64,000 nucleotides of DNA from Azolla caroliniana. Its lineage: Eukaryota > Plantae > Polypodiophyta. The position numbers were made by a program, and so were the translations under genes. Numbering within the stretch: the stretch's first letter is position 1; each line of letters begins with the position of its first letter. This document shows, piece after piece, positions 5,584 to 61,912 of this stretch. The stretch lies in the NCBI GenBank assembly GCA_043228905.1, contig JBHGNT010000021.1:4526001-4590000 (forward strand), given 5' to 3'. The notes under the pieces were generated by a model, which was not told the origin of the DNA, did no database searches, and saw nothing but the letters and a program-made list of their open reading frames with translations.

Positions 5584-6031
5584 TGTCATGAAGATCCGTC
5601 ACTACGCGCGGATCGTGAGGCGGAACCGCCGGGGTTCTGGACCAGAAGGATTTAGAGTCGATACAAGCTTTGGCGAGAAAGTACTTAAGATAGATTGGGA
5701 AAGAGAGAAGTTGAGATTACACGATTGAGAGAGATTGATTGAACTTTTAACTTTAGATTTAAGAAACAAGTTACACGATCAATTTGAAAACGAATTTCTT
5801 CCTCTTAATTTTCATAAAAAAAACCGTGTTTTTTCTCCTCCCCCTTCCTTCTTTTATAGATGCTCTCATGCATATGATGCATGTGAGGGTACAAGACATG
5901 CATAAATTGCATGTTTGCCATTTGGCGCTTATGTATTACATGTGGTGCATGATAACCATGTCACTCATTTTAGTTCTCATGTATGAGAATTTACATATAA
6001 AAGTACAATGATAGAAATATAATTTCAACTA

Positions 6032-6104
6032 AATAGCTTGGCTTAATGGTAAGCCAATTGACTCCTAACTTGGAGGTGCAAGGTTCGAATCCTTACTTGC
6101 CCTC
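6032..6104 (+). ncRNA. tRNA-like (Pol III A/B box) cassette inside gypsy LTR
   Basis: A box TGGCTTAATGG 6039-6049; B box GGTTCGAATCC 6082-6092; D-arm and T-arm pairing; poor acceptor stem. Confidence 0.6.
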
Positions 6105-6674
6105 CTTGTATATGTAAATATGTATATATATTTATATATTTATTTATCTAGTCGCCGGATGCCGTCGGATCACCGTTGCCGGATTGCCGCCGAATCACCG
6201 GCTCCATCGCCGGTCCGGTTTTGGTTGGCCAAAACCCTTTACGAGTAGCTAGCCCGCCTCCACTCTTAGTTCAAGTTACCTTGAACTCTCTATGCTCCAC
6301 ACATAGACACAAAGATAATATCTTTTGCTCCACCTTATATATGATGAGAGCTGTATTGGTCGTGCCTATATGGGATATCTCACAATTTTCTCCTTTCCTT
6401 TTACAAACTTTATACCCTCATATCTTGATATTTAGTTGTCCGTTTCTCGTGTAATAAAGTGCATTCGAAACCTCCATCATTTTGTACTTAGATATTAAAT
6501 ATATTTAAAATGTTATCTTCACAATTATTGTACTACGTGATTCATACTCGATTTCGTACGTTTTATAAGAATTTCACACTATTGCCGAAAATCTTCACGA
6601 CATCCACCCCCACCAAACCGCACGTCCTCCTGTACGTGCCAAGAAGAGAAGAAGTGAGATTTCGGCTACGATGA

Positions 6675-7717: not shown

Positions 7718-9285
7718 TCAACGTCGTATTCCTGTCCTTCTTTTTGGATGTCGCCAAAGGAATCCTCGCTTCAAGAAGTATCGGTAAGCTTTCTTTCGGA
7801 TTCGTAGGGCCTCCTCCTTTGTCAACGAAGCATCTGTCGTCAATGTTCTTAGGAATCTACCGATGAGTAACCATTCTCCTTCGTACTCGTTCTCGTTGAA
7901 GGCGTGGAGGGTTTGCGTGTCCTGGTCTTCCGCGGACAATCGAGCCATCTTGAAGAAGTTGAGGGCGACATCTTCATCTTCCGAAACCATGTTACTTCCA
8001 TTTGAAAATCTTGCCCTCGACAGCATGTCAGCCATGGCGTTCTTCTTCCCTGCGATGTGACGGATCTCTGGGTTTAAAGACTTGATGTAGGCGATCCACC
8101 TTAGCATAGCAAGATCTGGGGTCGCACATCCCGAGACCATTCCAAGAATTGGGAGACAATCTGTCTCTATTATCACTTCTGACCCGATCAGGTAATCTAC
8201 GGTCACGTAAATTGGTTTCCCTTCGGCATAGTCGGCCTTCCTTAGTGCCGGAGCTTCAAGAAGAAGTTTCGTTAATCTTCGCATCGCATCTGTGTGCTCG
8301 TCTCGCCATTCGAACTTTATTCTTTTCTTTAGTAGTCCATATAACGGTTCGGCGACATGAGCGTAGTGAGGAATCCATATATGATAAAACGCGCACGCTC
8401 CAAGGAACCTTCGAACCTCCGTTTGGTTTTCGCATTCTTCTTTCATGTCTTGGATTGCGTTCACTTTGGATGGCGAGGGCTTCCGGCCGTATGCTCCACA
8501 CAAGTGACCTACCACCAAGATCTCCGGTTGCCCAAATGCGGATTTTTCTCCCGAAAATGTCAAATTCGCATCTTCGAGCCTTTGAAGCACCTTCTCGCAA
8601 TCTTTCATATGATCCGCAACGAACTTTCTACAACCTTCCTTATCTTTCGATTCATCTTTCTCCTCATCCGAACATCCTTTTATCGGAATATCATCCAAGA
8701 ATGGCATCGTGATGTCCGGAATGCAATCCTTCAAGACTTTATTCATGGCATTCACCATATGAGCCACGAAGTTCGTTGCGCCTTGGGGTAAGGTACACAT
8801 CCGCACAAGCCCGATCGGAGTCCTCATGGTTGTAATGTCCCGATTGTCGATCGCCAATTGGAATTGGTCATATCCAGAGTAGAGATCGCCAATGGAGTAG
8901 ATGGACCGGCCCGCAAACGCTTCGGCAAATTCGTCCACGCTCGGACCGATTCCGGCATTTCGAATTGTCACCTTGTTGACGGGTTGAAGATCTTGGATGA
9001 ATCACAATGATCCATTCTTCTTCGGCACCGTGAACCACCTATTGGAATAAGGAGCATTCGACGGTTCTAGAATTCCCATACTCAACTTCTCCTTGAAGAG
9101 CTCGATCAGCTTCGGAAGGTGTGCTCTCGGAACCGGTATCGGTTTCAAGTTCCAAGGCACATGAGGCACCGTGAAGATCACCATCGGCTCTATAACCTTT
9201 GGGTCGGCGCATCCGATTTCTCGTGGGAAGAATGCGAAAGCCTTCCCATGTCTCTCAAGCATATCGCGAAACATTCGGTCCTCTT
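7718..9285 (-). pseudogene. pol: Gypsy B reverse transcriptase/RNase H
   Basis: LPQG, PFLDD and ADMLSR motifs; CGA>TGA stop at 9002; 55-aa in-frame RNase H deletion near 8195. Confidence 0.9.
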
Positions 9286-12200
9286 TGTTGAGAATCGACG
9301 CTTCGATTCACCTTCACCACTCGGCCACAACCAAGTAATTGCGAATCAATGCAGTAGAAAATAGGAACCACAGAGAGGAACACACGAATACACAGGGATT
9401 AACGTGGAAAACCCTAGATGGGAAAAACCACGGGAGTACAAGACTCCAAACCAACACTATACAAAGAGAAGTATACAATGGCGAGATGCAAGGCGACGAC
9501 CTTGAGCTCGCTGTCCTCGCCACAGGCGGCGGAAATACACAGAGGCGTCGTCCTCTTCCTCTCTCACGCTCTATCTCTCTCTCTCTCTCTCACGGCTGCT
9601 CCCACTTCACTCCTCTTGAGTGGAAAAACAGAAAAATGATCAGCAACTCTAAAACAGTTTGCCCTAAGTCATATTTATACATATATGACTTTGGGGCTAT
9701 TTACAACTATAGCCTCAGGGGCCCATAGCAAACATATTCACGGATATGTCCCTGCATCCGGATCGCTCTCCGGGTACATTCGTCATCCGGCTCCGAAGCC
9801 GGGGTCTTCATCATCCGGTTCCGAAACCGAAACCGGGCTCGTCGGCATTCATCTCCGACATCCGACCATCCCATCCGAAGGGACTGTAATCCCAACAAAC
9901 TCCCCCTTCACTTCGGCATGGGATGTCTTTCCAATCCGATCCTCTTCCGGCATGCTTCCAGCTTGTCGGGTGTGAGCACCTTGGTCAGCATATCCGACCC
10001 GTTCTCGTCCGTGTGGATCTTTGTCAGCACGAACTCCTTGTCTTCTATCCTTTCCCGGATCCAGTGATATCTTCGCTGGATGTGCTTCGTCCGGGAGTGA
10101 TAGGCCGCGTTCTTCGCAAGGTGGATTGCACTCTGACTGTCGCAGTAGAGTCGGTACTCCTCCTGCCGGATACCGAGCTCTCTAATGAAGTCCTTCATCC
10201 ATATTATTTCCTTGCCGGCTTCAACAGCTGCCATGTACTCCGCCTCCGTGGTTGACAACGCAACCGTCTTCTACAGCCTCGACTGCCACAAAACGGCCCC
10301 CCCTGCATACGTCATCACATACCCTGATGTGGACCGGCTGGTATCTGCATCAGCCGACATATCCGAATCGGTGAAGCCGTCGAGTTCGGGCTTACCGGAG
10401 CCGAATCGGAGGCACACGTTTGCCGTGCCTTTCAGGTATCGGAGTATCCACTTGGCCGCGTTCCAATGCTCTTTGCCGGGATTGCTCATGTACCGGCTCA
10501 CCACTCCGACTGCATATCCTATGTCCGGTCTCGTACACACCATGGCGTACATCAAGCTCCCGACGGCTGAGGCATACGGCACTTTCATCATATCCTCCTT
10601 TTCAGCCTTTGTCTTGGGACTTTGCTTGCTGGACAGCTTGCAGTTTGCCGGGAGGGTCGATCCGACCGGTCTTGCTTCCGACATGTTGAACCGGTGAAGC
10701 ACCTTCGTCACGTACTTCTCCTGTGACAGCCACAACTGCTTCTTCTTCCGGTCCCGGATGATGTGCATCCCTAGTATTTGCCTCGCCGGACCCAGGTCCT
10801 TCATTGAGAAGGTTCGGTGCAGAGCCTTCTTCAGCATCCGTATCTTGACCTGGTCCCGTCCGACGATCAACATGTCATCCACGTACAGGAGGAGTATTAG
10901 AAAGTCTCCTCCTTCGAACTTCTTCACAAACACGCAGTGGTCGGACTGCGTTTTGAGGTACCCCTCGTCGGTCATGAAGGAGTCGAACTTCCGGTACCAT
11001 TGCCGGGGAGCCTGCTTCAGTCCGTAAAGGCTCTTCTTCAACCGGCATACCAGGTGCTCCTTCCCTTTCTTCTCGAATCCTTCCGGTTGCTGCATGTAGA
11101 TCTCTTCATCGAGGTCACCGTGAAGGAACGCCGTCTTCACGTCCATCTGTTCTACCTCGAGGTCCATGCTTGCCGCTATGCTCAGCACCGTCCGGATGGA
11201 GGTCATCTTCACTACCGGGGCAAATATCTCGTCGAAGTCGACGCCCTTCTTCTGCTGAAACCCCTTCACCACGATCCTGGCTTTGTATCTCGGGGGGTTT
11301 CCGGCATCTCCCGGTTTCAGCTTGAACACCCACTTGTTTCGAAGTGCCCGCTTTCCTTTCGGCAACTCCACAAGTTCATATGTGTGGTTCTCATGCAGGG
11401 AATCCATCTCGTCCTGCATGGCACTCAACCACCTGCGGCTCTGGGTGTCATGTTTTGCTTCTTCAAAGCTCTCCGGCTCCCCCTCGTCGGTTAGCAGCAC
11501 GTGCTCTGGTTCCGGAAATCTCCGGGGGGCCCTTCTCTCTCTTAGAGGATATCTCCGTTCCGGAGTTTCGGTAATCGGTTCTTCCGATTCTTCTTCATCC
11601 GAATCCATTTCGGGATCGGGGCCGGTTCCGGTATCATTTTCATCTTCTTCGGTCGGTTCGGTTTCTTCACCGTCTTCGGCCGGATCCTCGAGTGCTAACC
11701 GGTCCCTTGCCGGTCGGGACTGCTCCTCGTAGAGTTGATCCTCACCGGTCGACTTGGAGCTCTTCATCTTCTTCTCCGACTCCCAGTCGGCGAGTGTCTT
11801 GTCCTCCATGAAGATGATGTCTCGACTCCTGAATATCTTCTTGTCGACCGGGTCCCATACTCGGTAGCCGAACTCGTCGTCGCCGTAACCGAGGAATATG
11901 CATGGCGGGGTCTTTGGATCTAGCTTCCCTCTCCGGTCCTTTGCCACATGCACGTATGCGAGACACCCGAACACCTTCAGATGCCGGTAGGATACTTCCC
12001 TACCGGTCCACACTCTCTGCGGCGTGTCTCCGTCCAAAGGTACTGAGGGTGATCGGTTTATCACATATGTCGCCGTCGACATTGCCTCAGCCCAAAACCC
12101 CTTGGGTAATTTCGCATGCGCCAGCATACTCCGAACCCTCTCCATTATGGTCCGGTTCATCCTCTCGGCCAGCCCGTTCAGTTCCGGCGTCTTCGGCACA

Positions 12201-14623
12201 GTAAACTCGAGTCGGATTCCCTTCGAGCGACAGTACTCCTGGAACTGCCCCCGGTATTCCCCTCCGTTATCCGCTCGTATTGCTTTCAGCTTCTTGCCGG
12301 ATTCCCTTTCCACTCTCGCGTGGAGTTCTTTGAAGACGCACAACACTTGGTCCTTTGTCTTCAGCGGTGCCGTCCACAGCTTCCGGCTGTGATCATCAAT
12401 GAATGTTACGAAGTACTGGGCTCCGCCATGTGACTTCGTTTCTACCTGACACACATCAGTGTGCACCAACTCCAATGGTGCGCTACGTCTCGTCGGTGGC
12501 CTTGAGTGGAAGGAGGTTCGGTTCTGCTTACCGGCCAGGCAATCGGTGCACTTCTCCAGGTGCACATGCTTCACTTGAATAAGGTTGTCTTCTGCAAGCC
12601 TCTTCATCCCCTTCTCACTCATGTGACACAGTCTTTTGTGCCACAGCTCACCGGCAGTGTCGGCTGCCACATTCAGCTCTTCAAGACATAACCGGGCATT
12701 CATCAGGTACAGTGTGTTGTCTTTCCGGGCCCGAGCCACTATCAAGCTCCCCTTGCTGAACTTCATTACGCCGTTCCGGATGCTACCTGTGTAGCCTTCA
12801 TCGTCTAGCCTCCCGGCCGAAATCAGGTTCAATCGAACCTCCGGAACATGTCGGACATCCTTCAACAGCATTTTGCATCCGGTCGGGGTTGTCAACCACA
12901 CGTCTCCTATACCGGCAATCCGGCACGTACCTTCATTTCCCATCCGAACACAGCCATGCTCACCGGCTGTGTAGGATGAGAAGTATCTTCTCTCCGGGGT
13001 CAGGTGGAACGATGCTCCGGAATCGACCACCCAGGTCGTCTCATCGCCGGCAATGTTTAGTTCACCTTCTTCGGTGATGAGCATGATTTCTTCCTCACTT
13101 GCCGCGAGTGCCGTTGTTCCTTTCCGGTCTTGCCCTCGCCGATCCGAACCTCTCCGGTCCGTGGCTCCCCGGTATGCACCGTTTCTCTCCGGTGACTTCT
13201 TCGAATCGGTGTCGTCGGCTCCGTTGTCTTTTCGGTAATGCCGACAATTCTTTCGGAAGTGCCCCGGCTTCCCACAGTGGAAGCATGTGGGCCTTCCTCT
13301 TGACTGCGACCGGGTCCCCGACTTCTCCCGTCTTTGCGGACTCCGGTTCCATTGTCTTCCCCGATCCGATTCGGTAAGCAGCGCCTTCGAGTCGGAGGCC
13401 GGTTCTTTATCTTTCCGACGCGCTTCTTCGTTCAAAATACTTGTCTTTACCGTTTGTAAGGACAAGTTATCTTCGGTGCAGGAGGTGCTGAGAGTCACCA
13501 CCAAGTTCTCCCAGCTTTCCGGCAATGTACACATCAGGATGATGGCTTGCATTGCATCCTCCAACGGGAACTTGATCGCCGCAAGCTGATTCACGAATCC
13601 CATGAACGTGCTTACGTGTTCCACCATACTCTCGCCGTCCCGGTACTTGAGATTCACTATCTTCCTCATCAGGGAGGTCCGGTTCAACGCATTCTTCCTC
13701 TCATAGAGGCCCGACAGCTTCCGCCACATCTCATATGCGTTGGTGTCGTTCGCCACATGTTGTAGAACGCTCACGTCGACGTATTGCCGAATGGTTGCAA
13801 CGGCTTTCCGGTTCAGAAGCCTCCATTCCGACTCAAGTACCCCCTTCGGTATTTCCGACCTGTCAATCGGTTCGTACAGGTCCCGAACAATCAGAAGATC
13901 CTCCATCTTGATCTTCCAGTCGGCGTAATTCTGTGCATTCAGCACCATCATCCCCGGCTGCCCGCTGCCGCCGCCTTCCATTTTCTGCAAAACCGAGCTC
14001 TGATACCAGTTTGTTGAGAATCGACGCTTCGATTCACCTTCACCACTCGGCCACAACCAAGTAATTGCGAATCAATGCAGCAGAAAATAGGAACCACAGA
14101 GAGGAACACACGAATACACAGGGATTAACGTGGAAAACCCTAGATGGGAAAAACCACGGGAGTACAAGACTCCAAACCAACACTATACAAAGAGAAGTAT
14201 ACAATGGCGAGATGCAAGGCGACGACCTTGAGCTCGCTGTCCTCGCCACAGGCGGCGGAAATACACAGAGGCGTCGTCCTCTTCCTCTCTCACGCTCTAT
14301 CTCTCTCTCTCTCTCTCACGGCTACTCCCACTTCACTCCTCTTGAGTGGAAAAACAGAAAAATGATCAGCAACTCTAAAACAGTTTGCCCTAAGTCATAT
14401 TTATACATATATGACTTTGGGGCTATTTACAACTATAGCCTCAGGGGCCCATAGCAAACATATTCACGGATATGTCCCTGCATCCGGATCGCTCTCCGGG
14501 TACATTCGTCATCCGGCTCCGAAGCCGGGGTCTTCATCATCCGGTTCCGAAACCGAAACCGGGCTCGTCGGCATTCATCTCCGACATCCGACCATCCCAT
14601 CCGAAGGGACCGTAATCCCAACA
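9286..14623 (-). mobile_element. Young Ty1/copia element C
   Basis: 612-bp LTRs 9286-9897 and 14012-14623 (3 substitutions seen); TSD CTCTT; iMet PBS 13997-14008; PPT 9898-9910. Confidence 0.97.
9908..13981 (-). pseudogene. Copia C gag-pol polyprotein with one premature stop (10271-10273)
   Basis: CCHC, DSGA, HKRLCH/rve, YVDD, RNase H motifs; CAG>TAG relative to the intact sister at 43500-47573. Confidence 0.93.
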
Positions 14624-17435: not shown

Positions 17436-17453
17436 TTCACGTCGGGTTCACCA
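17436..17453 (-). promoter_or_regulatory. tRNA-Trp primer-binding site
   Basis: TGGTGAACCCGACGTGAA, complementary to the plant tRNA-Trp 3' end (recalled sequence); 8-nt spacer from LTR. Confidence 0.8.
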
Positions 17454-17909
17454 CTTAATTATGTCGTGAAGATCCGTCACTACGCACGGATCATGAGGCG
17501 GAACCGTCGGGGTTCTGGACCAGAAGGATTTAGAGTCGATACAAGCTTTGGCGAGAAAGTACTTAAGATAGATTGGGAAAGAGAGAAGTTGAGATTACAC
17601 GATTGAGAGAGATTGATTGAACTTTTAACTTTAGATTTAAGAAACAAGTTACACGATCAATTTGATAACGAATTTCTTCCTCTTAATTTTCATAAAAAAA
17701 ACCGTGTTTTTTCTCCTCCCCCTTCCTTCTTTTATAGATGCTCTCATGCATATGATGCATGTGAGGGTACAAGACATGCATAAATTGCATGTTTGCCATT
17801 TGGCGCTTATGTATTACATGTGGTGCATGATAACCATGTCACTCATTTTAGTTCTCATGTATGAGAATTTACATATAAAAGTACAATGATAGAAATATAA
17901 TTTCAACTA

Positions 17910-17982
17910 AATAGCATGGCTTAATGGTAAGCCAATTGACTCCTAACTTGGAGGTGCAAGGTTCGAATCCTTACTTGCCCTC
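17910..17982 (+). ncRNA. tRNA-like cassette in gypsy B 5' LTR
   Basis: A box at 17917, B box at 17960. Confidence 0.6.
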
Positions 17983-18468
17983 CTTGTATATGTAAATATG
18001 TATATATATTTATATATTTATTTATCTAGTCGCCGGATGCCGTCGGATCACCGTTGCCGGATTGCCGCCGAATCACCGGCTCCATCGTCGGTCCGATTTT
18101 GGTTGGCCAAAACCCTTTACTCCACTCTTAGTTCAAGTTACCTTGAACTCTCTATGCTCCACACATAGACACAAAGATAATATCTTTTGCTCCACCTTAT
18201 ATATGATGAGAGCTGTATTTGTCGTGCCTATGTGGGATATCTCACAATTTTCTCCTTTCCTTTTACAAACTTTATACCCTCATATCTTGACATTTAGTTG
18301 TCCGTTTCTCGTGTAATAAAGTGCATTCGAAACCTCCATCATTTTGTACTTAGATATTAAATCTATTTAAAATGTTATCTTCACAATTATTGTACTACGT
18401 GATTCATACTCGATTTCGTACGTTTTATAGGAATTTCACACTATTGCCGAAAATCTTAACGACAACGT

Positions 18469-24182: not shown

Positions 24183-25159
24183 TGTCATGATATGAACCCA
24201 TGACCTTACGTTATATGGGTCGAGCCCTTGCCATTAGACTATACATTGTAATATGATGATATTATTTTCTTGATGTATATTCCAGATTTCTCGAGAACAT
24301 TCTATAAACTTCAAGAGTACTCTTGAAAAGACTATATAAGGAGGCACAAGGCATTATTTCGAACCAAATCGGTTCAACGCCAGTCTTAAGCCTCTTAGCT
24401 ACTATTGTATATTCTCTTCACATAATATGTATCTTTTGCTATCATCATTCTCTCTCTCTCCCTCTCTCTATCACTCTTTCCTTCTCTCGAGAGTTCTACA
24501 CCTCTCTTAATACTAATCCTCATCTTTTAGTACTAATTCCTTCTCTGTCTTAGTATTGTTCCCAACAATACTTCTCTGTCTTAGTACTCTTCCTGAGAGT
24601 TTGAACCGATTTCCCGTCTCCTTCCTCCTCATCCTTTTATCTTCTTACTTCTCCCTCCCTTCATACTGTGAAGAAAAGCGCTGAATATCACTCGGCCACA
24701 ACCGAGTATTGAATCACAGAAATGGGGATGAACGAGAGAGTACACAAATATGACACAAGATGTTTATGTGGAAAACCCTAATAGGGAAAAACCACGTGAG
24801 CCCACGAACTACAACTATCACTATATAAGAGGAAACACAAAGTGGAGGCACAAAGGCAACAACCTCGTGCTCGCGATCTTCGCTAGACGGCGATTACAAC
24901 AAAGAGTGCTTGTAGCTACTTTCTCCCTCTCTCTGTCGCTCTCTCTATACAACAATATGACAATCACAACAACCTTACAAAGTGATTGCCCTAAGTCATA
25001 TTTATACTTATATGAACTTAGGGTTATTTACAAATGTAGCCTCAATAGGCTTACTCAAAACATATTTACAGATATGTCTTCTCTTCCGGTTCTCACCGGT
25101 TCTCTTTATTCATCACCGGATCCCATCCAGAGAGATTGATTTCCCAACAATCTCCTCCT

Positions 25160-37983: not shown

Positions 37984-38422
37984 TGTCGTGAAGATTTTCG
38001 GCAATAGTGTGAAAATCCCATAAAATGTACAAAATCGAGTATGAATCACATAATACAATAATTGTGAAGATAACATTTTAAATAAATTTAGTATCTAAGT
38101 ACAAAATGATGGAGGTTTCGAATGCACTTTATTACACGAGAAACGGACACCTAAATGTCAAGATATGAGGGTATAAAGTTTGTGAAAGGAAAAGAGAAAA
38201 TTGTGAGATATCCCACATAGGCACGACAAATACGGCTCTCATCATATATAAGGTAGAGCAAAAGCTATTATCTTTGTGTCTATCTGACGATGGAGCCGGT
38301 GATCCGGCGGTATCCGGTGACGGCATCCGACATCCGGCGAGGCACCGGTAACCGACGGCATCCGGCGAACCGACGTCCGGTGACTAGATAAATAAATATA
38401 TAAATATATATACATATACAAG

Positions 38423-38495
38423 GAGGACAAGTAAGGATTTGAACCTTGCACCTCCAAGTTAAGAGTCAATTGACTTACCATTAAGCCATGCCATT
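38423..38495 (-). ncRNA. tRNA-like cassette in gypsy D 5' LTR
   Basis: Reverse-complement A box 38478-38488, B box 38435-38445. Confidence 0.55.
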
Positions 38496-38965
38496 TAGTA
38501 GAATTTATATTTCTATCATTATACTTTTACATGTAAATTCTCATACATGAGAGCTAAAATGAGTGACATGGTTATCATGCACCGCATGTAATACATAAGC
38601 TCCAAATGGCAAACATGCATTTTATGCATGTCTTGTACCCTCACATGCATCATACGCATGAGAGCATCTATAAAAGAAGGAAGGGGGAGGAGAAAAAACA
38701 CGTTTTTTTTTGTTATGAAATTAAGAAGAAGAAATTCGTTATCAAATTGATCGTGTAACTTGTTTCTTAAATCCAAAGATAAAAGTTCAATCAATCTCTC
38801 TCAATCGTTTAATCTCAACTTCTCTCTTTCCCAATCTATCTTAAGTACTTTCTTGCTAAAGCTTGCGCCAAAGCTTGTACCGACTTAGAATCCTTCCGGT
38901 CCAGAACCCCGGCGGTTCCGCCTCACGATCCGCGCGTAGTGACGGATCTTCACGACATAATTAAG

Positions 38966-38983
38966 TGGTGAACCCGACGTGAA
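38966..38983 (+). promoter_or_regulatory. tRNA-Trp primer-binding site
   Basis: TGGTGAACCCGACGTGAA after spacer TAATTAAG. Confidence 0.8.
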
Positions 38984-39024
38984 AGAGGCGGTAGGAAGGA
39001 TCAAGCTGAGATTAATACTTGGAG

Positions 39025-40757
39025 ATGGCGTCCTCAAGCAACCAAGCGGGAGAGCTCGAAAGGATGATGCTAATCATCGAGCAAATGATGAGATCTCGGG
39101 ACAACGACGCGAGCATGGAGAAGGTTGTCGATCGTGTCGTAGAGCTCGAGGGCCAATTCGATGGAAGGAACGGTACGAAGTTCCTTGATGCATATAGAAG
39201 GGTGATGAATCAGAGGGACGTGTCCGAGGCACGTCAAATCACAAGCTTCAAGCCGCCAAGACAAAGTAACGTGGAAGAAAAGAAGATTGATGATGACATC
39301 ATTGAAGAGCTAGCGAAGAAGTTCGAGAAGGTCACACTAGCCAACATGAATCGTCGGGGCCCTAAAGGAAAAGAACCCTTTAGATGCATGTGGTGCGATA
39401 GCATGGACCACATGAGGAGGGATTGTGCGAGCCTTCGAGAGGCGATTCGACAAAATATTGTATACATAGAGGACAACATGATTTGCTCAAGCGAGACTAG
39501 AAGACCCCTACGGGTGAATTTCGGAAGAGGAGGAATGAAGAAATCTATGGAGGATGCCGATGCGACTCATGTGGATGTGATGCACTATGCTGCGTCGGCC
39601 GGAATAAGAGTCGGGAAAGACAAGACTGAAGTTGCTAGAGCGGGAGCAAAGTTTTGGACTTCCGTTCTCGAATATGAGAAGAAGGGAAAGTCACATCGAA
39701 CGAGGTAGAGCTTGCAGACCGAAGTGTGCAAAGCATAACCGGGTGGTCGGATCCGGTGGACGACGACACCATACTCGCAGAGGTGATGTGCGACAACCAC
39801 GAGGTGTTCGTCGAAGAAAAGAGAAAGAGAATAGAAGAGCAAGGCCCATCAAAAAGACATGAAACAAGGAACATGAAAAAGAAGGACGATGCGGAGACGA
39901 GTCGACCTTTACAAACGGAGGAACGAGAATCAAACCGAAAAGGGGAGCCGAGCATACGAGTTGAAGAAACGGTTCGGCCCGTGAAGGTTGGTGTCGAAGA
40001 CCCCGCTCGGAGGACAAGGACTATACCTACCTATAAGCTAAGGTCGGACATAGAGCAGACGATGGACCTAAAGAAGATTCTCGAAGAACGAGTTCTTGAT
40101 AGCCACGTAACTTTGTCCTTGAGGGAATTGCTTGGTATTACGAAGAAGGAGTTCCATGACATGATTGTGGACCTTGTAAAGAGAAAGAGACAACAATCGG
40201 ACGAGGAAGAAGAGAAGCCGCAAAAAGCAAAAACGAATGCCATAACGATGGCAAGAGACAAAGTCGATGAAGATATGGTGGACAGCCACTATACTCGACC
40301 TCATTGGGCACAAGCGACAACGGAGATGCCGGTGAAGATCGGGGAGAAGAAAGAGACCGTGGTAGCCTTGATTGACCACGGCTCGGAGATCAACCTCATG
40401 TCAACCGACTTCTACAAAAAAGGAAGATGGCCAATCAATACAAACCACGGATGGAAGATTCGCGCGGCAACAAAGTCTACGGAGGACTTGTACGGAGCTT
40501 GTCCCAATATCAAAGTCACGATCAGGGATGTGGAGATGGAACAACACTTCTTCGTACAAGAATCAGTGTCGCATCCTATCATCCTAGGGCAACCTTATAT
40601 CACATCATCTCGGATGGAGACCAAAGTGTTCGATAATGGAGCAGCCTTCGCACGAATAAAGAGTCTTGACAACCAAAGATCGGTCCAATTCCTAACGGTG
40701 CGAGCCAATCATGAAAGGAATCGAGATAGTCTCAGAGGCGAATCCTTGGATTTTTAG
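39025..40757 (+). pseudogene. gag: Gypsy D Gag-protease (155-aa deletion, frameshift near 39690)
   Basis: ORFs 39019-39708 and 39726-40757 near-identical to B; ALIDHGSEINLM. Confidence 0.9.
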
Positions 40758-40810
40758 AGCGGACTATTGAAGCATGGGGCACAAATAGTCCGAGCAATCA
40801 CAAGACCCCA
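40748..40810 (+). promoter_or_regulatory. Predicted -1 ribosomal frameshift signal
   Basis: GGATTTT, 5-nt spacer, stem CGGACTATT/AATAGTCCG, loop TGGGG pairing with downstream CCCCA. Confidence 0.7.
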
Positions 40811-42803
40811 CAAGAAAGAAGAGTGTGTGGATTGTGAGGAGAAGCAACATGTGTCACACCTAGTGGCGCATGTAAACTAGTACTACCCGACAAGAAGCAC
40901 AAGCACCGGATACAAGAATTCGAGAAGATGCTGAAAGAAGAAAACATAATAGAAGAAGGAGAGTTCGTGACTCATATTATGGAAGAAGCCTCATTTAACG
41001 ACACCATCAGTGAAATCGAGGACGTCGTGGACTTGAGCTATCTTCACAACCAACGTGTGATTTCGGTTAACTCCGTCAACATGTATGCTATCATCAATGA
41101 ATACCGTCATGGCATCTCGATGAAGGAAGCTGACATCAACACGAAATATAAAACGGTGGATAAGAAGATCAAGCCAGTTGCGGCTCCGCTACCGGAAGAT
41201 AGCTGGCTAAAGATGAAGGAAGTCGCTAACGATCCAAGCTTAAGAGATCCGAAGAAGATAGGTCATGTCTTCACCAAAGAGATGAAGGGGAAGCTACGAG
41301 TTGGAAAGGAGAATTTCCTTCTCCTTGAAGAGGAACGAATGTTTCGCGATATGCTTGAGAGACATGGGAAGGCTTTCGCATTCTTCCCACGAGAAATCGG
41401 ATGCGCTGACCCAAAGGTTATAGAGCCGATGGTGATCTTCACGGTGCCTCATGTGCCTTGGAATTTGAAACCGATACCGGTTCCGAGAGCACACCTTCCG
41501 AAGTTGATCGAGCTCTTAAAGGACAAGGTGAGTATGGGAATTCTAGAATCGTCGAATGCTCCTTATTCCAATAGGTGGTTCACGGTGCCGAAGAAGAATG
41601 GATCATTGCGATTCATCCAAGATCTTCAACCCGTCAACAAGGTGACAATTCGAAATGCCGGGATCGGTCCGAGCGTGGACAAATTTGCCGAAGCATTTGC
41701 AGGCCGGTCCATCTACTCCATTGGCGATCTCTACTCCGGATATGACCAATTCCAATTGAGGATTGACAGTCGGGACATTACAACCATGAGGACTCCGATC
41801 GGGCTTGTGCGGATGTGTACCTTACCCCAAGGCGCAACGAACTCGGTGGCTCATATGGTAAATGCCATGAATAAAGTCTTGAAGGATTGCATCCCGGACA
41901 TCACGATGCCATTCTTGGATTATATTCCGATAAAAGGATGTTCAGATAAGGAGAAAGATGAATCGAAAGATAAGGAAGGTTGTAGAAAGTTCGTTGCGGA
42001 TCATATGAAAGATTGCGAGAAGGTGCTTCAAAGGCTCGAAGATACGAATTTGACATTTTCGGGAGAAAACTCCGCATTCGGGCAACCGGAGATCTTGGTG
42101 GTAGGTCACTTGTGTGGAGCATACGGCCGGAAGCCCTTGCCATCCAAAGTGAACGCAATCCAAGACATGAAAGAAGAATGCGAAAACCAAACAGAGGTTC
42201 GAAGGTTCCTTGGAGCGTGCGCGTTTTATAATATATGGATTCCTCACTACGCTCATGTCGTCAAGCCGTTATATGGACTACTAAAGAAAAGAATGAAGTT
42301 CGAATGGCAAGACGAGCACACAAATGCGATGCGAAGATTAAAGAAACTGCTTCTTGAAGCTCCGGCACTAAGGAAGGCCGACTATGCCGAAGGGAAACCA
42401 ATTTACGTGACCGTAGATACGAGCCCAACCGGAATCGGGTGGGTCATCAATCAAGAAGGTGAAGATAATGCACGATATGCCGTCTGGTTTGGAGCAAAGG
42501 TTCTCAGCGAACGGCAACAAAGATATGCCCAAGTCAAGCGGGAACTTTGGGGTATTGTGTCGGTAGTGAAGACGGACAAAGGTTACCTAATCGGGTCAGA
42601 AGTGATAATAGAGACAGATTGTCTCCCAATTATCGGAATGGTCTCGGGATGTGCGACCCCAGATCTTGCTATGCTAAGGTGGATCGCCTACATCAAGTCT
42701 TTAAACCCAGAGATCCGTCACATTGCGGGGAAGAAGAACGCCATGGCTGACATGCTGTCGAGGGCAAGATTTTCAAATGGAAGTAACATGGTTTCGGAAG
42801 ATG
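40755..42803 (+). pseudogene. pol: Gypsy D pol (RT-RNase H)
   Basis: SNRWFTVPKK, LPQG, FLDY (mutated from FLDD), DTSPTGIG, ETDC; stop near 40835; interrupted by copia E. Confidence 0.9.
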
Positions 42804-42867
42804 TGTTGGGATTTCGGTCCCTCCGGATGGGATGTCCGGAGATGAATGACGGCAAGCCCGGTTGCGG

Positions 42868-42996
42868 TTACGGAGCCGGATGATGAAGACCCCGGCTACG
42901 GAGCCGGATGATGAAGACCCCGGCTACGGAGTCGGATGATGAAGACCCCGGCTACGGAGCCGGATGATGAAGACCCCGGTTACGGAGCCGGATGAC
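42868..42996 (+). repeat. 28-bp tandem repeat in U3, about 4.5 copies
   Basis: Unit CTACGGAGCCGGATGATGAAGACCCCGG. Confidence 0.95.
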
Positions 42997-43499
42997 GAAT
43001 GTACCCGGTGAGAGATCCGGATGCGGAGACATATTTGTGAATATGTTTGCCAAGAGCCCTTGAGGCTATATTTGTAAATAGCCCGAAAGTCATATGTGTA
43101 TAAATATGACTTAGGGCAAACAGTTAAGTTGTTGTTGCTCATTTTTCTGTTTTCCACCAAGAGGGAGCGAAGTGAGAGCAGCCGAGAGAGAGAGAGACGA
43201 AGAGGTCGTTGCCTCTGTGTATTACCACCGCCTGTGGTGAAGATAGTGAGCTCAAGGTTGTTGCCCTGTAGCTTCACCACTGTACATCTCTGTTTTAGTG
43301 ATAGTTGGAGTTTGAGGACTCCCGTGGTTTTTTTTCCCATTTAGGGTTTTCCACGTAAAACATCCAGTGTACTCTTCTCTCTTTTGTTTTTTTCGTGCAT
43401 TGTTGTATTTCCCGTTTTCTGTGAATCGATCCTGTTCCTCGGTTGTGGCCGAGCACGGAATTTCGACAAAGTGGTATCAGAGCGACGGTAACACAGAAA

Positions 43500-46400
43500 A
43501 TGGAAGGCGGCAGCAGCGGGCAGCCGGGGATGATGGTGCTAAATGCGCAGAACTACGCCGACTGGAAGATAAAGATGGAGGATCTGCTCATTGTTCGGGA
43601 CCTGTATGAACCGATCGACAGGTCGGAAATACCCAAGGGGGTACTTGAGACGGAGTGGAGGCTTCTGAACCGGAAAGCCGTTGCAACCATTCGGCAATAC
43701 GTCGACGTGAGCGTTCTACAACACGTGGCGAACGACACCAACGCATATGAGATGTGGAGGAAGCTGTCGGGCCTCTACGAGAGGAAGAATGCGTTGAACC
43801 GGACCTCCCTGATGAGAAAGATAGTGAACCTCAAGTACCGGGACGGCGAGAGTATGGTGGAACACGTAAGCACGTTCATGGGATTCGTGAACCAGCTTGC
43901 GGCGATCAAGTTCCCGTTGGAGGATGCAATGCAAGCCATCATCCTGATGTGTACATTGCCGGACAGCTGGGAGAACTTGGTGGTGACTCTCAGCACCTCC
44001 TGCACCGAAGATAACTTGTCCCTACAAACGGTAAAGACAAGTATTTTGAACGAAGAAGCGCGTCGGAGAGATAAGGAACCGGCCTCCGACTCGAAGGTGC
44101 TGCTTACCGAATCGGAACGGGGAAGACAATGGAACCGGAGTCCGCAAAGACGGGAGAAGTCGGGGACCCGGTCGCAGTCAAGAGGAAGACCCACATGCTT
44201 CCACTGTGGGAAGCCGGGGCACTTCCGGAAGAATTGTCGGCATTACCGAAAAGACAACGGATCCGACGACACCGATTCAAAGAAGTCACCGGAGCGAAAC
44301 GGCGCATACCGGGGAGCCACGGACCGGAGAGGTCCGGATCGGCGAGGGCAGGACCGGAAAGGAACGACGGCACTCGCGGCAAGTGAAGAGGAGATCATGC
44401 TCATCACCGAAGAAGGTGAACTAAACATTGCCGGCGATGAGACTACCTGGGTGGTCGATTCCGGAGCGTCGTTCCACCTGACCCCGGAAAGTAGATACTT
44501 CTCATCCTACACAGCCGGTGAACATGGCTGTGTTCGGATGGGAAATGAAGGTACGTGCCGGATTGCCGGCATAGGAGACGTATGGTTGACAACCCCGACC
44601 GGATGCAAAATGCTGCTGAAGGATGTCCGACACGTTCCGGAGGTTCGATTGAACCTGATTTCGGCCGGGAGGCTAGACGATGAAGGCTACACAGGTAGCA
44701 ACCGGAACGGCGTAATGAAGTTCAGCAAGGGAAGCCTGATAGTGGCTCGGGCCCGGAAAGTCAACACACTGTACCTTATGAATGCCTGGTTGTGTCCGGA
44801 AGAGCTGAATGTGGCAGCCGACACTGCCGGTGAGCTGTGGCACAAAAGACTGTGCCACATGAGTGAGAAGGGGATGAAGAGGCTTGCAGAAGACAACCTT
44901 ATTCCAGTGAAGCATGTGCACCTGGAGAAGTGCACCGATTGCCTGGCCGGTAAGCAGAACCGAACCTCCTTCCACTCAAGGCCACCGACGAGACGTAGCG
45001 CACCATTGGAGTTGGTGCACACTGATGTGTGTCAGGTAGAAACGAAGTCACATGGCGGAGCCCAGTACTTCGTGACTTTCATTGATGATCACAGCCGGAA
45101 GCTGTGGACAGCACCGTTGAAGACAAAGGACCGAGTATTGTCCGTCTTCAAAGAACTCCACGTGAGAGTGGAAAGAGAATCCGGCAAGAAGCTGAAAGCG
45201 ATACGAGCGGATAACGGAGGAGAATACCGGGGGCAGTTCGCGGAGTACTGTCGCTCAAAAGGAATCCGGCTCGAGTTTACTGTGCCGAAGACGCCGGAAC
45301 TGAACGGGCTGGCCGAGAGGATGAACCGGACCATAATGGAGAGGGTTCGGAGTATGCTAGCGCATGCGAAATTACCCAAGGGGTTTTGGGCTGAGGCGAT
45401 GTCGACGGCGACATACGTGATAAATAGATCACCCTCAGTACCTTTGGACGGAGACACGCCGCAGAGAGTGTGGACCGGTAGGGAAGTATCCTACCGGCAT
45501 CTGAAGGTGTTCGGGTGCCTCGCATATGTGCATGTGGCTAAGGACCGGAGAGGAAAGCTAGATCCAAAGACCCGGCCATGCATATTCCTCGGTTACGGCG
45601 ATGACGAGTTCGGCTACCGAGTATGGGACCCGGTCGACAAGAAGATATTCAGGAGTCGTGATATCATCTTCATGGAGGACAAGACACTCGCCGACTGGGA
45701 GTCGGAGAAGAAGATTAAGAGCTTCAAGTCGACCGGTGAGAATCAACTCTACGAAGAGCAGTCCCGACCGGCAAGGGACCGGTTAGCACTCGAGGATCCG
45801 GCCGAAGACGGTGAAGAAACAGAACCGGCCGAGGAAGATGAAACTGATACCGGAACCGGCCCCGATCCCGAAATGGATTCGGATGAAGAGGAAACGGAGG
45901 AGCCGGTTACCGAAGCTCCGGAACGGAGATATCCTCTAAGAGAGAGAAGGGCCCCCCGGAGATTTCCGGAACCAGAGCACGTGCTGCTAACCGACGAAGG
46001 GGAGCCGGAGAGCTTTGAAGAAGCAAAGCATGACACCCAGAGCCGCAGGTGGTTGAGTGCCATGCAGGACGAGATGGATTCCCTGCATGAGAACCACACA
46101 TATGAACTTGTGGAGTTGCCGAAAGGAAAGCGGGCACTTCGAAACAAGTGGGTGTTCAAGCTGAAACCGGGAGATGCCGAAAACCCCCCGAGATACAAAG
46201 CCAGGATCGTGGTGAAGGGGTTTCAGCAGAAGAAGGGCGTCGACTTCGACGAGATATTTGCCCCGGTAGTGAAGATGACCTCCATCCGGACGGTGCTGAG
46301 CATAGCGGCAAGCATGGACCTCGAGGTAGAACAGATGGACGTGAAGACGGCATTCCTTCACGGTGACCTCGAAGAAGAGATCTACATGCAGCAACCGGAA

Positions 46401-47573: not shown

Positions 47574-47647
47574 AGGGGGAGTTTGTTGGGATTTCGGTCC
47601 CTCCGGATGGGATGTCCGGAGATGAATGACGGCAAGCCCGGTTGCGG

Positions 47648-47748
47648 TTACGGAGCCGGATGATGAAGACCCCGGCTACGGAGCCGGATGATGAAGACCC
47701 CGGCTACGGAGCCGGATGATGAAGACCCCGGTTACGGAGCCGGATGAC
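47648..47748 (+). repeat. 28-bp tandem repeat in 3' LTR, about 3.5 copies
   Basis: One unit fewer than the 5' LTR (637 vs 665 bp). Confidence 0.95.
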
Positions 47749-48225
47749 GAATGTACCCGGTGAGAGATCCGGATGCGGAGACATATTTGTGAATATGTTT
47801 GCCAAGAGCCCTTGAGGCTATATTTGTAAATAGCCCGAAAGTCATATGTGTATAAATATGACTTAGGGCAAACAGTTAAGTTGTTGTTGCTCATTTTTCT
47901 GTTTTCCACCAAGAGGGAGCGAAGTGAGAGCAGCCGAGAGAGAGAGAGACGAAGAGGTCGTTGCCTCTGTGTATTACCACCGCCTGTGGTGAAGATAGTG
48001 AGCTCAAGGTTGTTGCCCTGTAGCTTCACCACTGTACATCTCTGTTTTAGTGATAGTTGGAGTTTGAGGACTCCCGTGGTTTTTTTTCCCATTTAGGGTT
48101 TTCCACGTAAAACATCCAGTGTACTCTTCTCTCTTTTGTTTTTTTCGTGCATTGTTGTATTTCCCGTTTTCTGTGAATCGATCCTGTTCCTCGGTTGTGG
48201 CCGAGCACGGAATTTTGACAAGATG

Positions 48226-49664: not shown

Positions 49665-50167
49665 TCACCGTAGCCGAAATCTCACTTTCTCTCTTCTTGG
49701 CACGTACAGGAGGATGTGCGGTTTGGTGGGGGTGGATGTCGTGAAGATTTTCGGCAATAGTGTGAAAATCCCATAAAACGTACAAAATCGAGTATGAATC
49801 ACATAATACAATAATTGCACGAAGATAACATTTTAAATAAATTTAATATCTAAGTACAAAATGATGGAGGTTTCGAATGCACTTTACGGCTCTCATCATA
49901 TATAAGGTAGAGCAAAAGCTATTATCTTTGTGTCTATGTGTGGAGCATAGAGAGTTCAAGGTAACTTGAACTGAGAGTGGAGGTGGGCTAGCTACTCGTA
50001 AAGGGTTTTGACCAACCAAAACTGAACCAACGATGGAGCCGGTGATCCGACGGCATCCGACACCGGTGAGGTGATGGCATCCGGCGGCAACCGACGACGA
50101 AGATGTGACAGCATCCGGCGAACTGGCGTCTGGTGACTAGATAAATAAATATATATACATATACAAG

Positions 50168-50242
50168 GAGGACAAGTATAAGGATTCGAACCTTGCACCT
50201 CCGAGTTAAGAGTCAATTGGCTTACCATTAAGCCATGCCATT
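50168..50242 (-). ncRNA. tRNA-like cassette in gypsy D 3' LTR
   Basis: Reverse-complement A box 50225-50235, B box 50182-50192. Confidence 0.55.
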
Positions 50243-50708
50243 TAGTGAAATTTATATTTCTATCATTGTACTTTTACATGTAAATTCTCATACATGAAAG
50301 CTAAAATGAGTGACATGGTTATCATGCACCACATGTAATACATAAGCGCCAAATGGCAAACATGCATTTTATGCATGTCTTGTACCCTCACATGCATCAT
50401 ACGCATGAGAGCATCTATAAAAGAAGGAAGGGGGAGGAGAAAAAACACGTTTTTTTTTGTTATGAAATTAAGAAGAAGAAATTCGTTATCAAATTGATCG
50501 TGTAACTTGTTTCTTAAATCCAAAGATAAAAGTTCAATCAATCTCTCTCAATCGTTTAATCTCAACTTCTCTCTTTCCCAATCTATCTTAAGTACTTTCT
50601 CGCTAAAGCTTGCGCCAAAGCTGGTACCGACTTAGAATCCTTCCGGTCCAGAACCCCGGCGGTTCCGCCTCACGATCCGCGTGTAGTGACGGATCTTCAC
50701 GACACCAG

Positions 50709-54215: not shown

Positions 54216-54219
54216 ACGT

Positions 54220-59420: not shown

Positions 59421-60398
59421 TAGGATGCCCTCCGATCTACTTTCACGTGCATCTCTTGTTGCACCTCCATAGGCAAAGTTAAATTGACGACCAGATCTGC
59501 GACAGGATGAGCTACGAAGGGGAGTTCACCAAAATCCCTTCTTGACATCATTGTAGTTGTCGTCTCAGCCACCGTCTTCTCTATTTTTTTTGTAATGTTC
59601 ATATATTTAGGTTTAATTAATTAAATTATTAAACTATTAAATAATTAGGGGCATTAAAAAACATCAAGGAAAACAATAAACTAAGCTACTTAAAATGATA
59701 AAGTAGTAAACCCAGGTTTTAGAAACAAACCAAACCCTTTAATGATAATTGAAACTAAACCAAACCATTTAACTATATTCAAACTTATATAAATTGTTAA
59801 ACCATGACTTAACATGTCGCTTCAATTTTGAGCCAAAATCGTCTTCTCTTTTTTTTTGTAATGTTCGTATATTTAGGTTTAATTAATTAAATTATTAAAC
59901 TATTAAACAATTAGGGGCATTAAAAAATGTTAAGGAAAAAACAATAAACTGAGCTACATAAAATGATAACGTTGTCGTGAAGATCCGTCACTACGCGCGG
60001 ATCGTGAGGCGGAATCGCCGGGGTTCTGGACCGGAAGGATTCAAAGTTGGTACAAGCTTTGGCGCAAGCTTTAGCGAGAAAGTACTTAAGATAGATTGGG
60101 AAAGAGAGAAGTTGAGATTACACAATTGAGAGAGATTGATTGAACTTTTAACTTTAGATTTAAGAAACAAGTTACACGATCAATTTGATAACAAATTTCT
60201 TCTTCTTAATTTCATAAAAAAAAACCGTGTTTTTCTCCTCCCCCTTCCTTCTTTTATAGATGCTTTCATGCATATGATGCATGTGAGGGTACAAGACATG
60301 CATAAAATGCATGCTTGCCATTTGGCGCTTATGTATTACATGTGGTGCATGATAACCATGTCACTCATTTTAGCTCTCATGTATGAGAATTTACACGT

Positions 60399-61121
60399 TG
60401 TCGTGCCTTTCGGCGTCAGATCGTTTGCGTGAGCCGGGTGGGAACCACCGAGGTTTTGGACTAGGAGAAAGAAAAATACAAATAAGGCTAGTAAAGAATA
60501 GGTATAAAGAGTTATAAGATAAGAATCTCATGAATCCCACGAGTTTAGTATATTTAGTCAATATTTAGGTAGTAAGAGAGAATTATTTTAGCAAATTCGT
60601 GAATCCCACGAATATTTTAGATTGATTGATCATTATAGAAAAATAATCAACAAAAACTACAATGTGCTCCCCATCCTTATATAGTGATGGGAGAGACTAA
60701 GCATAGCTACATGCTTTTTTTCTAATATGTTCATGCACACTAAATGTGCATGTGATGCTTTTCTAATCCTTGCTTTTATTTGCTAAATATAGTGCTCATG
60801 CACGCTAGATGTGCATGAGTCACTTTTTAGTTGCTTGCGTTTTTCTATAAAATATTCACGCACTCTAAAAATGCATGATTTACCTTTTAATAAAGGTAGG
60901 CGCAAATAAAGCACTTATAGTTATTAAATCTATTTGTAAAATACTAAAGATAAGGTAGCATAATGGTAAAGTTAAGGTTTGGTTATGTGGAGGTATAGGG
61001 TTCAAATCTTGCCTTATGCACATGATAAATATTTTGATATATTATTTATTTATCTATATGTATCTAAAATCAGATATATTATTTTATGGTTTTCACGTAG
61101 TGTGTGGAATACACTACAACA
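60399..61121. mobile_element. Nested solo LTR of a different gypsy family
   Basis: TGTCGTG...TACAACA; TSD ACGT/ACGT; removal restores the host LTR. Confidence 0.85.
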
Positions 61122-61158
61122 ACGTAAAAGTACAATGATAGAAATATAAATTCAACTA

Positions 61159-61231
61159 AATGGCATGGCTTAATGGTAAGCCAATTGACTCCTAACTCGG
61201 AGGTGCAAGGTTCGAATCCTTACTTGCCCTC
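61159..61231 (+). ncRNA. tRNA-like cassette in solo LTR
   Basis: A box at 61166, B box at 61209; GGCA/TGCC partial acceptor stem. Confidence 0.6.
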
Positions 61232-61912
61232 CTTGTATATGTATATATATTTATTTATTTATCTAGTCACCGGACGCCAGTTCGTCGGATGTCGTCACCT
61301 CGTCGTCGGCGGCCGCCGGATGCCGTCACCTCACCGGTGTCGGTTACCGTTGTCGCCGTCGGATGCCGCCGGATGTCGTCACCTCACCGACGTCGGTTAC
61401 CGTTGCCGCCGCCGGATGCCATCACCGAATGCCGCCGGATTGTCGTCGGATCACCGGCTCCATCGTCGGTCTGGTTTTGGTTGGCCAAAACCCTTTACAA
61501 GTAGCTAGCCCACCTCCACTCTTAGTTCAAGTTACCTTGAACTCTCTATGCTCCACACATAGACACAAAGATAATATCTTTTGCTCTACCTTATATATGA
61601 TGAGAGCCGTATTTGTCGTGCCTATGTGGGATATCTCACAATTTTCTCTTTTCCTTTCACAAACTTTATACCCTCATATCTTGACATTTAGTTGTCCGTT
61701 TCTCGTGTAATAAAGTGCATTCGAAACCTCCATCATTTTGTACTTAGATATTAAATTTATTTAAAATGTTATCTTCACAATTATTGTATTATGTGATTCA
61801 TACTCGATTTTGTACGTTTTATGGGATTTTCACACTATTGCCGAAAATCTTCACGACAATGTAGTAAACCCAGGTTTTAGAAACAAACCAACCCTTTAAT
61901 GATAATTGAAAC

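Follow-up and report, generated by a model that had tools for sequence, protein, structure and literature searches.

The question raised by this locus was why a promoter of the type found in tRNA genes should lie in the long terminal repeats (LTRs) of a gypsy retrotransposon and point against the element's own transcript. The window, i.e. the whole stretch of 64,000 nucleotides analysed (Azolla caroliniana, contig JBHGNT010000021.1, positions 4,526,001 to 4,590,000), is a nest of LTR retrotransposons, and the feature belongs to B, a gypsy element on the minus strand, within its 3' LTR (5584-6602). Element D is a plus-strand relative of B (37984-50704), and solo LTR E belongs to the same family. 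The relevant LTRs are listed below with their strand; L numbers here and hereafter denote loci of relatives.

5584..6602, minus strand: 3' LTR of element B, with TG...CA termini, element target-site duplication (TSD) ACGT and a purine tract at 6603-6616
17462..18464, minus strand: 5' LTR of element B, cassette on the plus strand (A box 17917-17927, B box 17960-17970), primer binding site (PBS) at 17436-17453
37984..38957, plus strand: 5' LTR of element D, cassette on the minus strand (A box 38478-38488, B box 38435-38445), PBS at 38966-38983
49737..50704, plus strand: 3' LTR of element D, cassette on the minus strand (A box 50225-50235, B box 50182-50192)
59973..61858, minus strand: solo LTR E, same family as B and D, flanks ACGT/ATGT, cassette on the plus strand (A box 61166-61176, B box 61209-61219)
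60399..61121, minus strand: nested solo LTR of another Phygy-type family, TSD ACGT, 76-80% identical to the L028 LTRs

Between their LTRs, B and D encode in pieces a DUF4100 gag, reverse transcriptase (RT), RNase H and integrase (Pfam), and each is split by one copia insertion. The two copia copies (9284-14623 and 42804-48221) belong to the same young family and occupy different sites in the pol of B and D; the LTRs of one copy are 99.5% identical, and long ORFs of 1266 and 1382 codons occur in this copia family. The PBS (38958-38983 and 17436-17461 in the window; 39 loci) is near-invariant across the lineage and lies about 2-8 nt from the LTR end behind a variable spacer; it presumably corresponds to the 3' end of tRNA-Trp. 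Solo LTR E is flanked on either side by repeats of a short AT-rich segment (59700-59790, 61859-61915 and 62160-62200), which exceeds the 4-bp TSD in length.

The 4-bp target duplications (ACGT/ACGT, CCGG/CCAG and ACGT/ATGT for B, D and E, respectively, and ACGT/ACGT for the nested LTR) are of the NCGN type, a preference that the account of Neumann et al. (2019; PMC6317226) reports for Phygy elements only. The named proteins nearest to pol were hypothetical polyproteins of the liverwort Riccia (48-64% identity). From the NCGN target sites and these Riccia proteins, we infer that the B/D/E family is of Phygy type. The Phygy clade, a non-chromovirus group of Ty3/gypsy elements as portrayed in the passages of PMC6317226 concerned, shares with the family a short internal region filled by the polyprotein and 4-bp NCGN TSDs, whereas those passages mention no LTR-borne Pol III promoter. 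Phygy-like pol was also seen on contigs titled cyanobacterium (L081) and Streptomyces (L082), which are probably plant DNA in bacterial assemblies.

The cassette and its surroundings in the 3' LTR of B, together with a weaker cassette elsewhere in the window, comprise the following features.

5851..5859, minus strand: TATA-like CTATAAAAG, putative Pol II promoter of the LTR by pattern match, 180 nt from the A box
5860..6028, minus strand: CATG/TGCA-rich block between the cassette and the TATA-like box, common to the LTRs of distant families
6039..6049, plus strand: A box TGGCTTAATGG, tRNA positions 8-19, predicted +1 at about 6032
6074..6077, plus strand: AGGT, tRNA positions 44-47, kept across families and matching the TFIIIC contact region in yeast
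6082..6092, plus strand: B box GGTTCGAATCC, tRNA positions 52-62
6219..6222, plus strand: first T4 downstream of the B box here, at a distance not kept among LTRs
6333..6341, minus strand: another TATA-like site, across the cassette from the first
24188..24241, minus strand: weaker seventh cassette, A and B starts at 24241 and 24198 (spacing 43), B box with 2 mismatches, AGGT kept

A preliminary description, made from the sequence alone, had reported an antisense cassette with A and B boxes starting 43 nt apart in all five LTRs of the B/D family. This arrangement was confirmed at 6039/6082 and in the four other copies (A/B starts at 17917/17960 and 61166/61209 on the plus strand, and at 38488/38445 and 50235/50192 on the minus strand), including the single B-box change of the 38435 copy, which is G57A. 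In both full elements, the ORF strands, the Pfam matches and the polypurine tract (PPT) together with the PBS placed the cassette antisense to gag-pol. The five LTR copies are paralogues, 86-97% identical, and were therefore counted as one observation. The B box alone had 5 matches in the window against 1.59 expected; the real support is that of other families.

A sixth cassette, missed in the preliminary description, was found in the nested LTR at 60399-61121 (A box 60956-60966, B box 60999-61009, antisense, spacing 43), which also has a TATA-like box near 60675-60684 and for which the cassette is almost the only blastn similarity to the host LTR type. All six window cassettes showed 0 mismatches to the A- and B-box consensus sequences, TRGYNNARNGG and GGTTCRANYCY. 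Their spacing of 43 nt from start to start is equivalent to a 32-bp gap, as in tRNA genes, which supports classing the cassette, by its sequence, as a tRNA-type (type 2) Pol III promoter. In yeast tRNA genes, this 32-bp gap is the commonest (PMC11724288). The Phygy-type LTRs at 53501-54217 and 54221-54891 are without a cassette.

The seventh cassette sits at the start of an LTR-like segment that begins at 24184. LTRs of this other type (24184-24600; L009 3826-4116; L066 1661-1856) carry an antisense cassette no further than about 60-80 nt from the 5' end, followed by a TATA-like box; in L009 and L066 they are nested in Phygy pol and include a CATG-rich block. The cassette module may reach beyond Phygy.

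Regarding the nature of the cassette, the preliminary description had considered a captured SINE head or a tRNA mimic that could give an antisense RNA of roughly 190 nt or insulate the LTR promoter from silencing. The tRNA mimic did not withstand analysis. ARAGORN returned 0 tRNAs in the window and 0 in all 60 of the 60 relative loci given to it, and neither tRNA nor any other Rfam family matched the window cassette or its relatives. In 25 cassettes, stem pairing was no better than in slid controls (acceptor stem 39%, slid 32-43%; anticodon stem 39%, slid 33-50%; D stem 51%, slid 29-56%; T stem 69%, against 70% when slid by one); the cassettes have no cloverleaf in common, and a functional tRNA or cloverleaf mimic was ruled out on these grounds. 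The hairpin described as a D arm (GGCTTA/TAAGCC) exists, yet it lies one base off the canonical D-stem register and is not common to the families. Likewise, the anticodon-like loop (CTCCTAA or CTCTTAA) is located at positions 32-38 as described, but lacks its stem (2 of 5 pairs).

The predicted RNA was no better defined. The first T4 at about 6219 is correct for this copy, whereas across the five LTRs it falls at RNA nucleotides 188, 188, 233, 222 and 317, and in the nested LTR the first T4 predicts an RNA of 84 nt. T5 occurred in none of the five LTRs over the approximately 550 nt searched past the B box, and of 22 cassettes, 12 had a T4 no more than 35 nt from the B box, compared to 10.2 expected. 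Since no fold is shared and the six window LTRs predict lengths from 84 to 317 nt, the data do not support an RNA fixed at 190 nt, and a conserved terminator distance was ruled out by the same lengths. A conserved CAA start motif was also rejected, being found at -6 in the window family and in few others. One run presumed to be RNA gave a single 360-nt contig over the cassette, which is informative on neither strand nor expression.

These results weigh on the view that selection acts on a short RNA made from the cassette as a functional Pol III gene, such as an antisense U3 RNA tuning, decoying or feeding small-RNA silencing of the family. The window-family cassette folds into two stable hairpins, better than shuffles (z from -2.2 to -3.3 in four copies; -1.85 for the nested-LTR cassette), and the mean z over 22 cassettes was -1.13, with 6 below -2 and no common fold; better-than-shuffle folding leaves room for selection on the RNA. 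The conserved A box points to real initiation, the antisense orientation recurs in 10 of 11 cassette-bearing clusters of relatives, and the 5' flank is AT-rich (60-91% AT) as in plant tRNA genes, whose flank features were compared with those set out in the relevant part of PMC11700998. The variable predicted length, the T4 count close to expectation, the acceptor and anticodon stems paired within the slid range, the fall of between-group identity to 0.25 after the B box and the reversed orientation in L012-L015 all count against a selected RNA, and we regard it as unlikely.

To place the cassette in a wider context, relatives were selected by pol protein, with the motif ignored: an alignment of 34 pol proteins yielded the best 80 of 163 confirmed metagenome loci, to which 2 loci from genome contigs were added. 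A generic A+B scan of these 82 loci (spacings 40-47, two mismatches in all) gave 28 matches, i.e. 18 at spacing 43, 7 at 44 and 3 at 42, and none at spacings 40, 41 and 45-47. A profile trained on 20 cassettes (threshold 16) was then run over 518,349 bases at spacings 30-60 and gave 39 matches at 42-44, compared to 20 over the 28 other spacings. At 42-44, five block shuffles gave 0, 0, 1, 0 and 2 matches, which rules out a chance origin of the cassettes, and leave-one-group-out profile scores were 16.9-45.0 against the threshold of 16. Viral contigs had no match to either a 24-nt cassette pattern or the pol alignment.

LTRs were delimited by PPT, PBS and termini, and 53 of the 82 loci were clustered with the three window elements at 90% pol identity; the other 29 were omitted as too short or without an LTR, and no LTR was scored for the two genome-contig loci. 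The cassette was found in 11 of the resulting 32 pol clusters and was absent from 16, while 5 were not scorable, so that 11 of 27 scorable clusters were positive. The cassettes of L009 and L066, which belong to the nested LTR of another type, and the matches in L019 and L079 were not counted for their own clusters. RT-RNase H of the positive families was 68-83% identical to that of element D. The closest pol relative, L001 (90%), was among the cassette-negative clusters, with an LTR cut at 717 nt; metagenome contigs of repeats are possibly chimeric or cut, so some of the negatives may be false. As most sampled families are without the cassette, the module is accessory. On a quick pol tree its distribution was patchy, with at least 7 changes of the antisense label; this tree carries wrong labels for L009 (cassette of the nested LTR), L010 (no U3) and L038, and supports only the term 'patchy'.

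Two variants of the motif were seen among the relatives. In L038 (about 1040-1130), the A box, AGGT and B box are present at a spacing of 32, i.e. 11 nt shorter or about one helical turn, for which a deletion or an assembly artefact is possible. In L024 (about 6117), L037 (about 7016) and L011 (1205-1260), sense sites combining AGGT with a B-box-like sequence lie downstream of the TATA-like box; their A box is poor or missing, which makes them candidate TFIIIC-only sites.

Conservation was compared first across families. When nine cassette groups (22 cassettes, grouped by eye) were weighted equally, between-group identity was 0.86 at AGGT (positions 44-47), 0.78 in the B box and 0.66 in the A box, compared to 0.32 at positions 1-7, 0.32 at 22-43, 0.30 at 48-51 and 0.25 at 63-76. 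In 25 cassettes numbered as tRNA, three weak ones included, the scan-free positions A44, G45, G46 and T47 were kept in 22, 23, 25 and 23 cassettes, respectively, AGGT thus being kept although it was not part of the scan. Further scan-free positions kept were T16 (23), T20 (21), A21 (20), a pyrimidine at 33 (25) and A38 (21). In yeast, G47 is a TFIIIC contact, transcription responds to changes at +44 to +47, and the A box is important for recruiting TFIIIB and Pol III (PMC11724288). Since the boxes and AGGT are kept while the stems are lost, the kept set fits the DNA bases read by TFIIIC, except for positions 33 and 38, which lie outside the TFIIIC contacts noted above and count against this reading.

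Within the window family, contigs of three DNA runs were aligned to 5990-6105 and differences at 2% or more were counted. The table is blind within about 30 nt of the ends (a near-fixed difference at 5997 is missing from it), and AGGT and the B box fall in the blind zone; the 18 variable places all lay between 6023 and 6072. Only 1 of 15 sites was variable in 6039-6053 (A15G, allowed by the consensus), compared to 17 of 35 flanking sites (Fisher p = 0.005), and when C/G sites only were considered, 0 of 6 were variable in the A-box region against 10 of 12 in the flanks (p = 0.0015). Loose ends at 6086 continue as B boxes that fit the consensus. Compared with neighbouring LTR sequence, as the preliminary description had suggested, the A-box region was less variable than its flanks within the family, and across families the boxes outlasted the linkers. 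Equal divergence of boxes and flanks, named there as refuting, was thus not what was seen. On this pattern of variation, the cassette A box is under selection; the cassette is also spread across a lineage.

This pattern also bears on the idea that the cassettes are passengers, i.e. SINE heads or tRNA pseudogenes that AT-rich LTR DNA captured once or more and that spread as LTR modules were exchanged, their conserved boxes being a legacy of the donors. Heads of tRNA-derived SINEs keep their A and B boxes while their stems decay. The patchy distribution, the absence from 16 of 27 clusters and the mosaic LTRs described below would be expected of passengers; in the same runs, loose ends at 6047 and 6086 (30 letters) reveal similar heads placed in other contexts, and donors would have in common the tRNA-like traits pyrimidine 33 and A38. 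However, within one family mutations hit neighbouring C/G sites and spare the A-box region, the position of the cassette relative to the TATA-like box is narrow, and when the window LTR is compared with the nested or L022 LTR, blastn similarity is confined to the cassette or mainly found there. In contrast to SINE heads, moreover, the cassette occupies a fixed place in the LTRs of many families, and neither a SINE body or tail nor a target duplication was identified around it by eye. Mere passengers are thus doubtful, a shade more so than a selected RNA. For the origin of the cassette itself, we infer descent from a tRNA gene or a SINE head; a captured SINE head, as proposed in the preliminary description, is a possible source.

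With respect to the putative Pol II promoter, wherever a TATA-like box could be scored the A box closest to it was 137-272 nt upstream, all TATA boxes being pattern matches. The distance is 180 nt in the window family, 272 in the nested LTR, 190/197 in L011, 215 in L012, 137 in L015, 165 in L022, 163 in L024, 161 in L029, 157 in L039, 147 in L042, 165 in L070, 155 in L078 and 182 in L041; L024 and L042 have an additional, nearer TATA-like match, and no TATA-like box was scored in L014, L028, L040 and L044. Given the second TATA-like site at 6333-6341, the assignment of the cassette to U3 is itself only presumptive. The best cassette is antisense in 10 of the 11 positive clusters and sense in L012-L015. 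L039, L078 and L044 each have two antisense cassettes, and L022 has one per orientation. In L039 and L078, an extra sense cassette lies 129 nt downstream of the TATA-like box, so that outward-pointing cassettes stand on both sides of it.

Orientation is also relevant to a direct role in replication, in which the segment would anneal the primer tRNA on the genomic RNA as an extended primer binding site, or the Pol III promoter would make element RNA as in Cassandra. On the genomic RNA, an antisense tRNA-like sequence is complementary to a tRNA, and some copies are sense. Nevertheless, the PBS implies a primer with A62, whereas position 62 is C or T in 23 of the 25 cassettes and position 52 is G in 22; this mismatch and the variable orientation largely refute a primer-annealing site. 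Genomic RNA cannot come from an antisense promoter, and element length is about 7 kb, so that a role in replication of either kind is hardly credible.

In the antisense families, the gap between the cassette and the TATA-like box is filled by the CATG-rich block, which in the window (5860-6028) we take to resemble RY motifs, the binding sites of B3 factors such as ABI3 and VAL. Between the window LTR and L011, the stretch comprising cassette, CATG and TATA has 72-76% identity, and its CATG-TATA part is 73-76% identical between the window LTR and L038, L041 and L044. Across families (L011, L038, L041 and L044), CATG/TGCA blocks are 73-76% alike with pol only about 68-70% identical. The left part of the window LTR resembles L001, L003 and L005, all of which are without the cassette. 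The LTR is thus a mosaic, with the cassette moving as part of a promoter module; this agrees with the patchy spread on the tree and means fewer independent cases than 11 clusters. L041 (6899-7559) and L040 show a second LTR-start-like sequence about 130 nt into the LTR, matching the start of L038/L044, which suggests that the promoter module arrived there by recombination; the sister L046 has AAAGCTATT repeats in place of that sequence.

The reading that best accounts for these observations, to which we assign a probability of about one in two, is that the cassette is a selected DNA element of the Pol III promoter type that acts in cis on the LTR promoter. TFIIIC would bind the B box, AGGT and the A box, and would place TFIIIB, with Pol III, on the AT-rich flank at about one nucleosome length from the TATA-like box. 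In the antisense arrangement, the flank bearing TFIIIB would face the Pol II promoter, which would be kept nucleosome-poor, open and shielded from silencing chromatin; a short antisense RNA, if any, would arise as a side product. The preliminary description's insulator or anti-silencing proposal fits the position and orientation of the cassette. As a known precedent, the tDNA-Ala barrier of Schizosaccharomyces pombe cen1 is likewise a type 2 promoter next to silent chromatin, and in the part of PMC2040200 concerned it needs TFIIIC and Pol III and is independent of orientation. The antisense bias in 10 of 11 positive clusters is one that no purely orientation-free barrier needs, and it speaks against a simple barrier. 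Moreover, tDNA barriers are host tRNA genes at domain borders, whereas here the promoter is mobile and without a tRNA, and a barrier activity would be a prediction. According to the pertinent part of the review PMC9540200, there is no report of a yeast- or animal-type barrier element functioning in plants.

The insertion of the nested LTR offers a different function, a self-made landing pad, in which integration by the Phygy integrase, like that of yeast Ty3, would be aimed upstream of Pol III promoters, so that copies would stack in one another's LTRs and off genes. The insertion point of the nested LTR in solo LTR E is a CpG (ACGT) located 36 nt upstream of the predicted +1, the only one of 63 CpG in LTR E that falls 15-60 nt upstream. 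This is one event only, B, D, E and the solo LTR at 53501 are without a cassette beside their insertion sites, and the NCGN preference known for Phygy elements (as given in PMC6317226) already explains the choice of ACGT. Such targeting is therefore very improbable.

Compared with known systems, the closest parallels are the 'TRIMp3' elements, i.e. Helenus, Ajax and Cassandra, which are presented in Kojima (2024; PMC10886601, in the sections drawn on here) as non-coding elements of 311-1263 bp with a Pol III promoter of small-RNA-gene origin in the LTR. According to the same sections, Helenus is tRNA-derived with one plant family known, in Selaginella; synthesis of element RNA from the Pol III promoter is shown for Cassandra and otherwise proposed; and autonomous partners of TRIMp3 must use Pol II promoters. 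The window cassette shares with all three a Pol III promoter in the LTR with boxes kept and an RNA fold that is mostly non-functional, and with Helenus the tRNA-derived sequence in both LTRs. Unlike Helenus, a non-coding TRIM, the elements here code for gag-pol, are about 7 kb long and have LTRs of 0.7-1.5 kb with a TATA-like box; and whereas the Helenus promoter is placed to transcribe the element, the cassette is antisense in the window family and in most positive clusters.

Literature searches, with Repbase reports, the supplements of Kojima and most subscription papers outside their scope, returned no description of such a cassette in coding LTR elements. The portion of PMC13570524 covered has none either, and in that of the Physcomitrium patens transposable element paper PMC7466625 the terms 'trna', 'sine' and 'polymerase iii' do not occur. 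Kojima's analysis was limited to TRIMs and, in the passage concerned, mentions 'not a few' Repbase LTRs with tRNA-like sequence, so that isolated cases in autonomous LTRs may be on record.

LTR Pol III promoters have so far been described for tiny non-coding elements, in which they make element RNA; here they occur in coding elements. As promoters that appear selected in coding elements mostly face the wrong way for making element RNA, another job is needed. A bolder version of the cis-acting reading, which we hold only tentatively, is that an old lineage of autonomous gypsy retrotransposons domesticated a tRNA-gene promoter as a portable chromatin barrier, passed among families within a promoter module and sometimes flanking the Pol II TATA box on both sides. 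The window family is abundant in DNA runs, and its relatives with and without the cassette are natural controls. If the reading is true, the divergence among cassettes would map the bases that plant TFIIIC reads once folding is unconstrained (the A box, AGGT at 44-47, the B box and perhaps positions 33 and 38). The cassette would also be a natural TFIIIC/Pol III barrier in plants and would bear on whether barriers of the tRNA-gene type work there, a matter raised in the part of PMC9540200 cited above. For the retrotransposons themselves, an anti-silencing role, if true, would be a cis-acting, protein-free way to stay active.
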